Notes: a model not told the origin generated them from the letters alone. DNA of 46,053 nucleotides from Candidatus Peribacteria bacterium RIFCSPHIGHO2_02_FULL_53_20 (GCA_001787585.1 MFXW01000074.1:1-46053), one strand, 5' to 3'. Shown: positions 9,445-27,962, numbered from the stretch's first letter. A program made the numbers and translations.

Positions 9445-10323
9445 ATGGCGCTGAGTTTTACGCAGTTAGCGGCTTATCGCCGCTGCCCCCGTCAGTACGA
9501 GTATTGCTACATCAAGAAAATTCCAAAGGGAGTTTCTCCGGGGGAAGCATTTGGTGCGTCGGTGCACAATGCGCTGAAGAAGTGGGGGGATTTGGAGATG
9601 ATGCAATCCTCGGATGAGCAAGCGATTGGCGATAAGCGATTAGCGGTTAGCAGACAACCGAGGTTGTTTGTAGAGGAGCAGGAAGCTAATCGCCAACCGC
9701 TATCCGCTATCCGCTTACATGCCTTATGGCATGAACATTTTCCGTTGAATGCATTCCCAACGAGAGTCGAAGCAGACGCTGCGCGTATGAGAGGAGAGGA
9801 GTTAATGACATTGTTTTATGCATGGTGGAGCGAACGACCGCGGGAAGTGGTGGCGGTGGAGAAGGGATTTTCAATTGATATTGGCGATGAGCGGTTAGCG
9901 GTTAGCGATGAGCGGTTAGCCGCGAAAGCTACACGCTATCCGCTCATCGCTCATCGCTTCACTCTTACTGGCCGCTTCGATCGCATTGAGCGCACGCCGG
10001 AAGGTTTGCATGTCATCGATTTCAAGACGTCGCAGCCGCGGACGCAGGCGGAAGTGGATGCCGATTTGCAGCTTTCGATTTATGCACTGGCGGCGCGTGA
10101 GGATTTCGGAGAGCTGCCGGTCGTATTGTCCCTGCTCCACATCACCGAAGACGGGATTCTGGAGATGCGGACAACGCGCCATGCAGGACAAGTGCAGGAT
10201 GCGATCAAGCAGATCACAGCGATCCACGGACGGATCACCGAAAAAGATTTCCGACCGACGCCGGCGGCGGCTGTGTGTAAATGGTGTCCGTATAAGGGAG
10301 TGTGTGACGTGGCGGCGGTGTAG
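9445..10323 (+). CDS. PD-(D/E)XK nuclease with Cas4/AddB-type Fe-S cysteines (RecB-family exonuclease)
   Basis: N-terminal Cys in YRRCPRQYEY. Nuclease motifs GRFDRIE, VIDFKTSQ and QLSIYALA. C-terminal CKWCPYKGVC. The start is taken at the ATG at 9445; the upstream extension in the track overlaps the minus-strand genes. Confidence 0.8.
   Translation: MALSFTQLAAYRRCPRQYEYCYIKKIPKGVSPGEAFGASVHNALKKWGDLEMMQSSDEQAIGDKRLAVSRQPRLFVEEQEANRQPLSAIRLHALWHEHFPLNAFPTRVEADAARMRGEELMTLFYAWWSERPREVVAVEKGFSIDIGDERLAVSDERLAAKATRYPLIAHRFTLTGRFDRIERTPEGLHVIDFKTSQPRTQAEVDADLQLSIYALAAREDFGELPVVLSLLHITEDGILEMRTTRHAGQVQDAIKQITAIHGRITEKDFRPTPAAAVCKWCPYKGVCDVAAV
9622..9719. repeat. In-frame palindromic module 1: tandem heptamers GCGATTG GCGATAA GCGATTA GCGGTTA, spacer, inverted heptamers GCTAATC GCCAACC GCTATCC GCTATCC
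   Basis: Read directly from the sequence. The arms pair imperfectly, with purine transitions. A central mini-hairpin reads acaacc ga ggttgt. Confidence 0.8.
9884..9962. repeat. In-frame palindromic module 2: GCGATGA GCGGTTA GCGGTTA GCGATGA GCGGTTA, 14-nt loop, GCTATCC GCTCATC GCTCATC
   Basis: gcgatgagcggttagc (9905-9920) pairs with gctatccgctcatcgc (9935-9950) at 15 of 16 positions. It encodes GDERLAVSDERLAAKATRYPLIAHR. Confidence 0.85.
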
Positions 10324-14545: not shown

Positions 14546-14674
14546 GTAGCAATTATAGTATATAATTAAAATTAGTCAATTTTCTTGTCTTTGGAAATGT
14601 TTTCGGTAGGATATCCAGCGGGCTCGGGAAATTCCCAAGGCATCCCCCAATAGGAGGAATGCCCGCGTTTGTCT

Positions 14675-16372
14675 ATGAATCCCAAACCCCACAGTACCGG
14701 CTCGAAAAAGAAAACCAAGCGAAGCCCTGCATTCGGTGGAGCGAAGTTTATCATTGTTACCGGAGGAGTGTGCAGCAGCTTGGGAAAGGGGATTGCCACC
14801 GCCTCCATCGGCGCGATCATGAAGGCCTGTGGATACAAAGTATTTGTGCAGAAGCTCGATCCGTATTTGAATGTGGATCCTGGAACCATGAGTCCGTTCC
14901 AGCACGGGGAAGTCTTCGTGACCGATGATGGTGCGGAGACGGATCTGGATCTTGGACACTACGAACGCTTCATTGACGAACCGATGAGCAAGCTCTCCAC
15001 GATCACGACGGGGAAAATTTACACGGATGTCATTGCTAAAGAACGGCGCGGAGATTTTCTTGGGGGCACCATCCAGGTTGTTCCGCACATCACCAATGCT
15101 ATCAAGGATTCGATCATCGGAGCGGCAAAGAAGAGCAAAGCCGAAATCATGATGGTGGAAGTCGGCGGAACAGTCGGAGACATTGAAGGGGAGCCCTATC
15201 TGGAGGCGATCCGTCAGATGAAATCCGATATGGGACCTGCGCGTATTTTCCATGTGCATCTCACACTCCTGCCATATCTTGCTGCATCCAAAGAGCTGAA
15301 GACGAAGCCCACGCAGCTTTCTGTGCGTGAACTCCGGCGCATCGGTTTGCAGCCCGATATCATCCTGACGCGCGCAGATCATAAAATCCCCACGGAACTT
15401 CTCGATAAAGTGAGCAAGTTCTGTGACGTGCCGCGCTCTGCGGTTATCCCTGCTCCCACAGTGAAATCCATCTACGATGTTCCCCTCAATCTGCAACAGT
15501 ACGATATCGCTGGGGTCATCGGCAAGAAACTGGGTCTCGGCAGACTCAGGCCTGATATGCGTGAATGGGAGGAGGGGCGCAAGCGTTATGAAGAGGCGAG
15601 CGAGCCCGTCCGTATCGCGCTTGTCGGCAAATACACGCATCTCGATGACGCGTACTTGAGCCAGATTGAATCCATCAAGTCCGCTGCCGTCTTCCACGGA
15701 CGCAAGGCTGAGATCGTCTGGGTAGACAGCGAGAAACTGGAAAAGAATGATGCGGAAATCTGGAAAGAGCTCAAGAGTGCTGCGGGCATCATCGTCTCCA
15801 GCGGATTTGGCAGTCGCGGCATCGAGGGAAAGATTGCCGCTGCGTGGTACGCTCGTACGCACAAGGTTCCGTACTTAGGTCTTTGTCTCGGATCGCAAAT
15901 CCTCGCCATCGAATTTGCCAGAAGTATGCTCAAAGACAACAAACTCACGAGTCAGGAGTTCGATGAAAAGGGATTACTCGGGCAAGAACGTTACGTCGTG
16001 CACTATCTCCCCGGTCAACACAAAGGGCGCAGCATGGGAGGCACATTGCGTCTGGGCGCATACCAATGTCGACTCAAGAAGGGGACAAAAGCGTATGCGT
16101 CGTACAAGGAAGCTGGTCAAATCGCGAAAGATGGAACCATCTCCGAGCGTCACCGTCATCGCTACGAATTCAATCAAGCATTCCGTACGCGTCTTGAGGA
16201 GAAGGGACTCGTATTCTCCGGCGAAGGACCAGAGACAGGACTTATGGAGATTGTCGAAGTGAAAGATCATCCTTTCATGGTGGGATCGCAGTTCCATCCG
16301 GAATTCAAAAGCAGACCGCATCGACCACATCCATTGTTTGAAGGATTTATGAAAGCAGTGACGGGGAAATAG
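14675..16372 (+). CDS. pyrG: CTP synthase
   Basis: KFIIVTGGVCSSLGKGIATAS, GATase catalytic GLCLGSQ, HRHRYEFN. AGGAGG at 14652-14657. The track start at TTG 14669 is an alternative. Confidence 0.95.
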   Translation: MNPKPHSTGSKKKTKRSPAFGGAKFIIVTGGVCSSLGKGIATASIGAIMKACGYKVFVQKLDPYLNVDPGTMSPFQHGEVFVTDDGAETDLDLGHYERFIDEPMSKLSTITTGKIYTDVIAKERRGDFLGGTIQVVPHITNAIKDSIIGAAKKSKAEIMMVEVGGTVGDIEGEPYLEAIRQMKSDMGPARIFHVHLTLLPYLAASKELKTKPTQLSVRELRRIGLQPDIILTRADHKIPTELLDKVSKFCDVPRSAVIPAPTVKSIYDVPLNLQQYDIAGVIGKKLGLGRLRPDMREWEEGRKRYEEASEPVRIALVGKYTHLDDAYLSQIESIKSAAVFHGRKAEIVWVDSEKLEKNDAEIWKELKSAAGIIVSSGFGSRGIEGKIAAAWYARTHKVPYLGLCLGSQILAIEFARSMLKDNKLTSQEFDEKGLLGQERYVVHYLPGQHKGRSMGGTLRLGAYQCRLKKGTKAYASYKEAGQIAKDGTISERHRHRYEFNQAFRTRLEEKGLVFSGEGPETGLMEIVEVKDHPFMVGSQFHPEFKSRPHRPHPLFEGFMKAVTGK

Positions 16373-16432
16373 GGGTTTGTTCTTTTCGGGCATGGAACCA
16401 TTTTTATCCCATACGGAAGCCATAATTTGCTC

Positions 16433-16952
16433 ATTTGGCATTTGGCAAAGAAGTTGCCCATTTCCCTGAGATCATTGGTGCGGCATGGTGTGGGCATGAC
16501 GACCACCACATCATCTGTTGCCAATACTCGTCCTCAGGGACGAATGCTGGAAGAACGGACCGAAGCTTTCGCAGGTAGTGTAAGGACATTTTTGAAAATG
16601 ATTCCTAAAACGGTCGAGCAAGAAGATGATATGGCTCAATTGCGTAGGGCAGCAGGCTCGGTCGCTGCAAATTACATAGAGGCGAATGAAGCATTGGGAA
16701 AACCAGATTTTTGTATGCGCATTCGGATTTGTCTCAAGGAATCGAAGGAAGCCAGGCTCTGGCTCAGACTACTTGATGGTTGCCGTCCAGGAACTCCTCA
16801 AGAGGAATTGCGTCAAAGTCTTATCAATGAATCACATGAGTTAGTTCGCATTTTCGGTGCAATCTTACGAACAGTAAAGAAGACCCTTCACACTCAATAA
16901 TGTGCAGCAATGGTCAATGTCTACTGGGCAACTTCTTTGCCAAATGCCAAAT
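16433..16952. other. IVS-like cassette: four-helix-bundle gene bracketed by a perfect 28-bp inverted repeat
   Basis: Left arm 16433-16460 is atttggcatttggcaaagaagttgccca. Right arm 16925-16952 is tgggcaacttctttgccaaatgccaaat, its exact reverse complement. The arms contain a tandem ATTTGGC heptamer. Imperfect pairing extends about 10 nt outward. Confidence 0.85.
16544..16900 (+). CDS. Four-helix-bundle protein (TIGR02436; 23S rRNA intervening-sequence protein family)
   Basis: MLEERTEAFAGSVRTF...QLRRAAGSVAANYIEANEALGKPDFCMRIRICLKESKEARLWLRLL matches the family pattern (QL.RSA.S+.ANI.EA......DF..K..IA.KE..ET..WL). At 118 aa it has the typical size. An alternative start is 16496. Confidence 0.8.
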   Translation: MLEERTEAFAGSVRTFLKMIPKTVEQEDDMAQLRRAAGSVAANYIEANEALGKPDFCMRIRICLKESKEARLWLRLLDGCRPGTPQEELRQSLINESHELVRIFGAILRTVKKTLHTQ

Positions 16953-16972
16953 CGGTCAATTAGGATATAACC

Positions 16973-17707
16973 ATGTCTCTCCTCTCCACTTCCCATCTCT
17001 CCCTCTCCATCGGAGAACATCGCATTCTCTCGGATATTTCCTTCTCGGTGGACTCCGGAGAAATCATTGGACTCATTGGTCCCAATGGCTCCGGGAAAAC
17101 TACGTTGTTCAATGTTCTCTCCGGATTTCTCAAGCCGAGCACCGGAACCATTCATCTCCATGGTGAAGATATCACCACTCTTTCTCCAGCGAAGCGTGCT
17201 CGCTTCGGAATTGGTCGAGTCTTCCAGAACTTCGGCATTTTCCGCGATATGACACTTTTCGAAAATGTTCTCGTGGCTCTGGAAGCTCTTTCCAAAGAAG
17301 AGCGTGCTCTTAAAGGGGATCTCCGGAAGGTCTCAATGGAGACACTCGAAATGGTTGGCTTGCAATCACATGCCCATACGAAAGCAGGATCGCTCTCCGG
17401 TGGACAGATGCGACTTCTCGAAATCGCGCGCACTCTGATGTCCGGAAAAGAATTGTTCTTGCTCGATGAACCCACAGCTGGCGTTTCCCCGAAGCTCACG
17501 CAGCAAGTTGCCGATCTTATTCTGCAATTGAAGAAGCAGGGCAAGACCGTTCTCGTGGTGGAGCACGATCTCCCGTTCATCGGTCGTATCTGTGACAGGG
17601 TCATTGTCATGGATGTAGGTAAAGTTGTTTTAACAGGAAAACCCAATGAAGTGAAACAGTCCAAAGGGCTCCGGGAATTGTATTTTGGGGCGGATCCGAC
17701 GACCTGA
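16973..17707 (+). CDS. livG: ABC transporter ATP-binding protein, LivG-like
   Basis: Walker A GPNGSGKTT, signature LSGGQMRLLEIARTL, Walker B LFLLDEPTAG. It sits beside Liv-type binding protein and permease genes. Confidence 0.85.
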   Translation: MSLLSTSHLSLSIGEHRILSDISFSVDSGEIIGLIGPNGSGKTTLFNVLSGFLKPSTGTIHLHGEDITTLSPAKRARFGIGRVFQNFGIFRDMTLFENVLVALEALSKEERALKGDLRKVSMETLEMVGLQSHAHTKAGSLSGGQMRLLEIARTLMSGKELFLLDEPTAGVSPKLTQQVADLILQLKKQGKTVLVVEHDLPFIGRICDRVIVMDVGKVVLTGKPNEVKQSKGLRELYFGADPTT

Positions 17708-27518: not shown

Positions 27519-27962
27519 ATGCGTCGCTTCCTCGCTTCCGGGTGGTTCTCGTTCCTGATTTGCGTGATCATGGCTGGAGTGACCGCTGCGGCGTTTGCCA
27601 TACTCAAACCCACGGGCGATGCCGTCGGTAACAGCGAGATCGTGAAGTATATGAAAATCGCCGGGTGGGCGGTAGGTCCCTTCGTTGCATTACTTTCGCT
27701 GATCCTCATCGGGATCCTGAATCTCTTGCGACGACTCTTCCGCGCGCGCCGTGTTTCCGTGTTGCATCCAGTGATTGTCCTGATCGGCATCGTTCCGTGG
27801 GTCATCTTCGCCTGGCAGATCACGGGGGAACCGCCGTTTACGCCGATTGCCCGCGGAGCAGTCGAGTTTATCGGTCGACCGCTTCTGTGGGGATCGCTTG
27901 TCGCAACACTCCTGACGATCTTTTTCTCGATTCCTCTGTTCATTCCTTCTAAAAAGAAGTGA
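27519..27962 (+). CDS. Hypothetical integral membrane protein (~147 aa, 4 predicted helices)
   Basis: MRRFLASGWFSFLICVIMAGVTAAAF.... The stop overlaps the GTG start of the next gene (GTGA). The track start at TTG 27498 is an alternative. Confidence 0.6.
   Translation: MRRFLASGWFSFLICVIMAGVTAAAFAILKPTGDAVGNSEIVKYMKIAGWAVGPFVALLSLILIGILNLLRRLFRARRVSVLHPVIVLIGIVPWVIFAWQITGEPPFTPIARGAVEFIGRPLLWGSLVATLLTIFFSIPLFIPSKKK

Follow-up and report, generated by a model that had tools for sequence, protein, structure and literature searches.

A four-helix-bundle gene in a proposed IVS-like hairpin cassette at the pyrG-livF junction of a Candidatus Peribacteria genome

Intervening sequences (IVSs) of rRNA genes and the S23p open reading frames (ORFs) found in them have been known for more than 30 years, and we know of no agreed origin or function for either. 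ORF-bearing IVSs of 23S rRNA are described in Coxiella burnetii, where the insertion lies in helix 45, and in Leptospira, Xanthomonas and Brucella (Warrier et al. 2016, PMC4990558). A 28-bp stem, heptamers and RNase III are reported for the Coxiella IVS (PMC4990558). Genes for the IVS protein lying inside rRNA insertions of candidate-phyla bacteria have already been noted as well (PMC11270868). Heptamer repeats are also described outside rRNA: the intergenic heptameric arrays of Xanthomonas and Nostoc typically count about four units, are enriched between co-oriented genes near stop and start codons and are often transcribed (Rehm et al. 2015, PMC4692102). A limited literature search under the names of the IVS protein family found no description of a cassette made of the gene plus its arms in operons.

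The window, that is the whole stretch of 46,053 nucleotides analysed here, is contig C74 of the source genome G000 (Candidatus Peribacteria bacterium RIFCSPHIGHO2_02_FULL_53_20; 1.13 Mb, 81 contigs, 52% G+C). Genomes of its relatives range from 0.7 to 1.5 Mb; among them G002, G003, G004, G005 and G006 are congeners, G004 being the sister species of G000. We favour, with moderate confidence, a reading in which 16423-16962 is an IVS-like hairpin cassette carrying a gene of the four-helix-bundle family (4HB; TIGR02436/PF05635, S23p or 23S rRNA IVS protein), placed together with a 44-nt upstream box region in an operon junction of about 25 nt; the arms would form a stem in read-through RNA, RNase III would cut this stem, and insertion would have proceeded without a transposase of the cassette's own. 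The features of the locus are as follows (window coordinates):

14669-16372, + strand: pyrG (CTP synthase), upstream neighbour; PF06418 393 bits, PF00117 119 bits
16379-16398, + strand: conserved box GTTCTTTTCGGGCATGGAAC, found at the same place in the sister species G004
16380-16961, + strand: segment of about 582 bp absent from the pyrG-livF spacer of G002 and G005; aligned by eye, within about 3 nt
16423-16432, + strand: outer imperfect extension of the left arm, TAATTTGCTC, corresponding to the half-loop of gene-less hairpins on contigs C51 and C62
16433-16460, + strand: perfect 28-bp inverted repeat, left arm; contains the ATTTGGC heptamer twice in tandem
16496-16900, + strand: 4HB protein gene (TIGR02436/PF05635), from profile, sequence and structure matches; stop codon at 16898-16900
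16925-16952, + strand: perfect 28-bp inverted repeat, right arm; contains the GCCAAAT heptamer twice in tandem
16937-16966, + strand: weak sigma-70-like match (TTGCCA, 18-nt spacer, TAGGAT), directed out of the right arm toward livF
16953-16962, + strand: right-arm extension on the outer side, CGGTCAATTA; homology to the hairpin on C51 stops at the right junction of the insert
16973-17707, + strand: livF-type ABC transporter ATPase gene, downstream neighbour; PF00005 120.5 bits

The sequence ATTTGGCATTTGGCAAAGAAGTTGCCCA at 16433-16460 has its exact reverse complement at 16925-16952 (28/28), and the repeat finder follows weaker pairing over 16423-16481 and 16904-16962 (59 nt, 78%), with TAATT...AATTA as its outermost part. 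A preliminary description of this DNA had announced a perfect 28-bp inverted repeat around a TIGR02436 gene, a tandem ATTTGGC heptamer in each repeat and imperfect pairing further outward. All of this holds: pairing is complete over the 28 positions, the gene matches the profiles (see below), the heptamer occurs twice within 16433-16460 and the pairing extends to 16423 and 16962. A simple calculation puts the chance expectation for a perfect inverted pair of 28-mers no more than 1.5 kb apart at about 2e-8 per 1.1-Mb genome. The stem formed by the arms appears in both the minimum-energy and the centroid RNA folds (-192 kcal/mol for 600 nt, z = -3.3). A scan of the window against Rfam returned tRNA only, with no known RNA family over the cassette.

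Signals of transcription were also sought around the arms. To the eye, TGGCAAAGAAGTTGC within the arm has a sigma-54-like look. The sigma-70-like match at 16937-16966 agrees at 9 of 12 positions, 1.3 such matches being expected by chance; no better than chance, it is no evidence of function. No intrinsic terminator, defined as a short G+C-rich stem followed by a T run, occurs on the + strand between 16200 and 17100, and the reading of the arms as a terminator was rejected, the cassette containing no terminator-like site. The structure had been said not to be ordinary gene punctuation, and this is supported.

The ORF between the arms is open from 16427 and ends at 16900 on the + strand. Two starts are conceivable, ATG 16496 and ATG 16544, and the former is more likely on alignment with relatives, since in these the conserved (Y)(D)LEERT motif is preceded by 10-16 residues. 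The ORF belongs to the TIGR02436/PF05635 family and has the four-helix-bundle fold: it scores 57.6 bits against TIGR02436 (cut-off 24) and 38.8 bits against PF05635 (cut-off 33.8), and its protein sequence matches 2RLD, a structure of the S23 family, with an E value of 7e-9. The AlphaFold2 monomer model, obtained with a six-sequence alignment, has four helices with a pLDDT of 94.1, and its top Foldseek matches are 2RLD (TM 0.76-0.82), 2GSC (Xanthomonas S23p) and then bAvd 4DWL. Both 2GSC and bAvd form a homopentameric ring, and the fold relatives bind nucleic acid and a reverse transcriptase. Related cassette proteins are under purifying selection, with pN of 0.12-0.42 against a saturated pS of 0.74-0.85. 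The identities to the window's protein follow neither site orthology nor species: 51% for the same-site copy of G004, 57% for a paralogue and 58-61% for proteins of another genus and of other phyla. This pattern is only suggestive of exchange, because the proteins have about 110 residues and their divergence is saturated.

Candidate-phyla bacteria often carry diversity-generating retroelements. Together with the similarity of fold to bAvd (4DWL, 8UB7), this could designate the gene as the Avd accessory protein of such an element, a possibility which we regard as extremely unlikely, given that the sole reverse transcriptase of the assembly lies on contig C78 with its own adjacent Avd-like ORF. 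The neighbourhood of the cassette contains no reverse transcriptase and no template or variable repeats, and the retroelement reading of the locus was ruled out. At the C78 locus itself (L123, C78:13300-16500), probably a diversity-generating retroelement, a reverse transcriptase of 424 aa with a YADD motif has a divergent Avd-like ORF of 104 aa as its neighbour.

pyrG, the 4HB gene and livF are all on the + strand. In the congeners G002 and G005, the pyrG stop is separated from the livF start by about 25 nt (TAGGGATTTGAGGTAGAATATTTCCAATG); the cassette consequently sits in an operon junction, and its first placement, between two unrelated operons, had to be abandoned. In G006 the spacer contains a small hairpin and in G003 other palindromes. 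Comparison with sister genomes had been suggested from the outset, and it finds the site filled in G000 and G004, and the unit absent from the same spacer in G002 and G005. The junctions of the insert read TAGGGGTTTG/TTCTTTT and CGGTCAATT/AGGATATAACCATG (...GGTTTG/TTCTTT... and ...CAATT/AGGATA...), with no direct repeat that would make a target-site duplication at either of them when compared with G002 and G005. ORF and profile searches found no transposase or recombinase within the unit. The extra DNA starts 53 nt outside the left arm, so that the arms do not coincide strictly with its two ends.

The sister species helps to delimit what is specific to this lineage. Its PyrG is 93.5% identical to that of G000 at the protein level, with four-fold sites 55% identical, i.e. 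near saturation. The fill of G004 shares with the window its first 40 nt or so (the box region, to about 16421, by eye), its arms at this site are of unrelated sequence (AAGAGACAAGAAACAAAT..., 25/29 paired) and its 4HB protein is the 51% identical one mentioned above. The lineage-specific part is therefore the 540-bp palindrome-ended unit 16423-16962. A 4HB gene directly follows pyrG in four other genera too, in both orientations; those next to pyrG in G009, G017 and G016 are without clear arms.

The presence of the cassette does not result from assembly, since contigs from independent public metagenome runs hold the whole region, spanning 16281-17600 or 15800-17152 unbroken and with zero differences. 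The stretch was located in nine public DNA runs, metagenomes of the same population, and in no RNA run. No empty or inverted variant was seen in contigs from four of the nine DNA runs containing the stretch and from four runs of relatives. Two apparent back-joints in metagenome contigs, 16961>16433 and 16960>16427, are the hairpins of C51 and C62, to which they were assigned because their loose ends match the flanks of these two loci. Scanning the metagenomes with a 21-mer of the arm retrieved the C51 and C62 loci of the same organism, plus two matches in unrelated contigs that are taken to be chance.

How could an insert be accommodated in so tight a junction? We suppose that, in a read-through RNA from pyrG, the arms would pair into a stem of at least 28 bp and that the RNase III of this genome would cut this stem, as it does in rRNA intervening sequences. 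Cleavage would separate the pyrG, 4HB and liv messages, and the insert would for this reason be tolerated or harmless. A complete RNase III with its dsRNA-binding domain is encoded on contig C30 of G000. The RNase III mechanism is proposed by analogy; the analogy of the cassette with IVSs, already drawn in the preliminary description, is supported by the same protein family, the long terminal stem and the tandem heptamers in the arms. No 23S rRNA gene was found in the 81-contig assembly of G000. As for its arrival, the cassette, or its arms, may insert, or may once have inserted, by a mechanism for which it need not encode a transposase.

Upstream of the gene, the 20-nt box GTTCTTTTnGnGnATGGAAC is genus-specific, with 12 matches in 7 genomes of the genus, and for 7 of these 12 copies a 4HB gene follows on the same strand at a distance of 100-160 nt. 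Copies are located as follows:

Box copies in G000: window 16379-16398; C16:2470-2489; C54:1247-1266; C29:7071-7090
Box copies in congeners: G004 contigs C28, C44, C67 and C103; G005 contig C28; G002 contig C126

The box is outside the arms in some cassettes and inside in others. On C29 of G000 and C67 of G004 it comes after a stop codon and before an ordinary terminator, with no 4HB gene nearby. Promoter, 5' leader and target site are candidate roles.

The layout is not peculiar to this site. G000 has four TIGR02436 genes, three besides that of the window: the gene on C16 stands between arms of 36-41 nt composed of GAAACCAAG-type tandem units, that on C54 between 34-nt arms of AAGGGCGC-type units, and that on C30 has an GGTTTGGTG array on its left, the contig ending before any right arm. 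Some 80 nt separate this C30 gene from the stop codon of rnc (RNase III), which lies upstream of it (C30:26722-27512 and 27590-27900). Genes of this type occur in 24 of 31 related genomes. At 32 loci of relatives, the best bracketing inverted-repeat score has a median of 18 versus 8 in controls, which were 600 random placements of the same geometry, and 26 of the 32 are above the control 99th percentile. Their arms are nearly always tandem short repeats, whose sequence varies from locus to locus.

The same holds at larger distances. A cross-phylum search, made with one genome per species and an alignment of the closest relatives of this protein, gave 562 loci. The proteins of the best 80 are 50-61% identical to the window's and come from Deltaproteobacteria, Planctomycetota, Verrucomicrobiota, Chloroflexota, Nitrospirota, several candidate phyla and the cultured Wenzhouxiangella. 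Among the 76 testable loci of these best 80, 62 have AAATCCG-type heptamer arrays upstream and the complement downstream; this AAATCCG subfamily has kept both its arms and its gene from phylum to phylum. Both in the lineage and across phyla, genes of the 4HB family as a rule lie within such a hairpin. With tandem arrays of units of about 7 nt bracketing the gene, a position wedged between genes and presence or absence at the site, the unit of the window fits a heptamer-armed 4HB cassette, and it is one more member of a widespread and largely undescribed class of insertable gene-in-hairpin cassettes.

Hairpins are abundant in this genome. G000 contains 102 non-overlapping long inverted-repeat loci, with loops mostly of 100 nt or less; 68 of them have tandem-repeat arms, 48 of these with a period of 7. 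Among the 68, purines predominate in the 5' arm of 57 and pyrimidines in that of 9, a strong handedness that the choice of strand could not produce, because a hairpin reads alike on both strands. The window itself contains two compact tandem-repeat hairpins, at 813-877 (AAGGGCGCAAGG type) and 9897-9958 (AGCGGTTAGCGATG type). Two other loci attract attention. At C30:18030-18825, the guanylate kinase gene gmk lies between complete hairpins of one heptamer/decamer family (GAAACCAAGG type), and at C26:4060-4514 a DUF559-like ORF (Vsr-type endonuclease fold, by eye) lies between two CCCCTCCTCCTTCGGAGGAGGGG palindromes, which is a second kind of small repeat-bracketed gene.

This background has to be weighed, as the arms could have nothing to do with the gene and be leftover halves of two intergenic heptamer hairpins, terminator-like or REP-like, whose long-range pairing would be incidental. 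Two independent half-deletions would be needed, and the 28/28 pairing includes TTGCCCA/TGGGCAA, which is unpaired in the C51 and C62 hairpins. It is true that some hundred such loci exist, mostly with short loops and more often than not tandem-armed, that gmk is flanked by two complete hairpins of a single family, and that each arm of the window retains about 9 nt matching the half-loop of C51/C62. The bracketing is, however, tied to 4HB genes, in the lineage (26/32) as across phyla (62/76), the empty spacers of G002 and G005 contain no hairpin, and the cassette has no terminator-like site. We therefore consider this explanation unlikely, and retain that of a cassette in which gene and arms belong together.

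The arms of the window cassette have relatives in the same genome. Their 22-nt core occurs six times, at three loci, in G000 and in none of 30 related genomes; a search for other copies of the repeat, which the preliminary description had proposed, thus finds the arm not to be unique, two more loci carrying it. These are gene-less hairpins with the arms of the cassette and loops of 17-18 nt, at C51:4637-4710, upstream of rplA, and at C62:3183-3255. The C51 hairpin is missing from the corresponding site of six congeners; in G003, this site is occupied by a hairpin of another family. On C51 and C62 the arms come in the reverse of the cassette's order: right arm, 17-18 nt, left arm. Window 16924-16961 equals C51 4636-4673 at 36 of 38 positions, a match that ends at the loop apex of C51, which is the right junction of the insert, and the 9 nt or so outside the left arm resemble the other half of the C51/C62 loop. 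Since the arm order is reversed and the homology ends at the loop apex and the junction, these hairpins look like cassette ends joined together and not like an internally deleted cassette. A right end (arm plus 9 nt) abutted to a left end (9 nt plus arm) has the geometry of a circle or dimer junction.

Gene-less hairpins of the other arm families in G000 keep the arm order of the cassettes. The polarity of the two forms can be judged in two ways: by purine content, the cassette follows the majority rule of G000, and by likeness to the cross-phylum AAATCCG arms, it is the C51/C62 hairpins and not the cassette that fit. In one more gene-less hairpin, at C64:4383-4453, the right arm is 34/34 identical to the right arm of the cassette on C44 of G004, which occupies a non-orthologous site; synonymous sites of G004 are saturated relative to G000. 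This identity and the confinement of the arm core to G000, at three loci, are signs of movement; against movement stand the missing target duplication and enzyme and the uniformity of the sampled population. A reversed arm order could come from a circular or dimeric intermediate, or arise by an ordinary route, tandem arrays followed by deletions. This is suggested by a Planctomycetota MAG (L151 1180-2200) with tandem AAATCCG-armed 4HB cassettes, one with an intact gene, one reduced to a 3' remnant and two to 5' stubs, each of them armed; the intact gene is likewise framed by one downstream-type and one upstream-type arm, in an order found again in L129. The L151 locus shows that 4HB cassettes can pile up and decay in place.

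Could the unit then be a non-autonomous element with terminal inverted repeats, MITE-like but with cargo, moved in trans by a transposase encoded elsewhere? We find this quite unlikely. The right-then-left order of the ends at C51 and C62 is not that of an internally deleted MITE, no target-site duplication is present, and the other 4HB cassettes of G000 have unrelated arms that one transposase would not serve. In its favour, the terminal inverted repeats are perfect, congeners differ in having the site filled or empty, the same ends recur at two other loci of the genome, and the arm sequence is species-specific, which suggests recent spread. The earlier proposal that the arms are the terminal inverted repeats of a small mobile cassette applies in a loose sense only: target-site duplication and transposase are lacking, the extra DNA reaches 53 nt past the left arm, and the arms of other cassettes of the family differ.

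Further indications come from cassettes at orthologous sites. At a site shared by four species, the cassettes on C44 of G004 and C28 of G005 differ at five arm positions, and in each of them the arms are perfectly complementary (38/38 and 32/32, respectively), so that every change is present on both sides. Arm pairing is thus kept while the arm sequence changes, which means either selection for pairing or conversion between the arms. Relative to the same flanks, the G004 C44 cassette is in the opposite orientation to those on C28 of G005 and C126 of G002, as is the cassette C36a of G005 to that on C4 of G006. Occasional exchange between inverted arms would explain both these flips and the perfect arms.

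Such flips, together with the occurrence of pyrG-adjacent 4HB genes on either strand, might also mean that the arms are DNA inversion sites and the unit an invertible segment that switches expression of the 4HB gene or of liv. There is no adjacent invertase, though, and in contigs from the four of nine runs containing the stretch the unit has a single orientation, with no strand-changing joint at the arms; rare RecA-type exchange between arms of 28-38 bp over evolutionary time suffices for the flips. We hold a dedicated switch to be very unlikely, and the IVS-like cassette remains our preferred reading. An old resident cassette whose arms were homogenised by gene conversion would look much like a mobile one; synonymous sites between G000 and G004 are near saturation (four-fold identity 55%).

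These elements can be assembled into a broader conjecture, which as a whole we see as rather unlikely: the 4HB hairpin cassettes would be a transposase-less mobile class passing through a joined-end form, the 4HB protein would recognise its own heptamer arms, and rRNA IVSs would be copies landed in rRNA. The layout in any case gives a concrete hypothesis for the binding target of the abundant 4HB proteins, and points to a natural means of placing a gene within an operon while the neighbouring messages stay separable. It also links the cassettes, as a class, with the heptamer repeats whose excess in the intergenic DNA of bacteria is unexplained. What the present instance contributes is a further genus with filled and empty sites, an arm common to three loci of one genome, a hairpin arm identical to a cassette arm of another species, cassettes of opposite orientation at one and the same site, changes that always affect both arms in a matching way, and an end-to-end 'junction' form of the arms.

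Compared with known systems, the cassette is not a component of a diversity-generating retroelement, nor a classical TIR transposon, nor a terminator. With bAvd (4DWL, 8UB7) it shares the four-helix-bundle fold (TM about 0.65-0.7) and a distant family relationship, whereas its locus is without reverse transcriptase and without template or variable repeat. REP/RAYT systems, MITEs and Rickettsia palindromic elements are likewise short palindromes scattered in intergenic regions in many copies, gene-less forms far outnumbering coding ones. Unlike them, the cassette encodes no HUH (RAYT) or other transposase, its arms differ from copy to copy, and the protein it carries is small and helical, without any known catalytic motif. 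The intergenic arrays of Xanthomonas and Nostoc are also composed of tandem 7-nt units; they are treated as G-quadruplex-forming, and the abstract and headings of the report link no gene family to them (PMC4692102).

The closest system is that of the 23S IVSs. In both cases, a S23p/PF05635 protein is encoded in the loop of a unit of 430-540 nt, complementary termini form a 28-bp stem with tandem heptamers in the arms, a selfish or mobile origin is proposed, and RNase III is the expected processing enzyme. The window cassette differs by its location between the protein-coding genes pyrG and livF and not in an rRNA helix, and by the conserved upstream box that stands beside the gene in its genus. 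The Coxiella ORF is decaying and apparently untranslated (PMC4990558), whereas that of the window is intact and the genes of related cassettes are under purifying selection. The same gene, stem length and heptamers in a protein-coding operon, at a site that is empty in relatives, support the notion that rRNA IVSs are one landing place of a broader class of cassettes.
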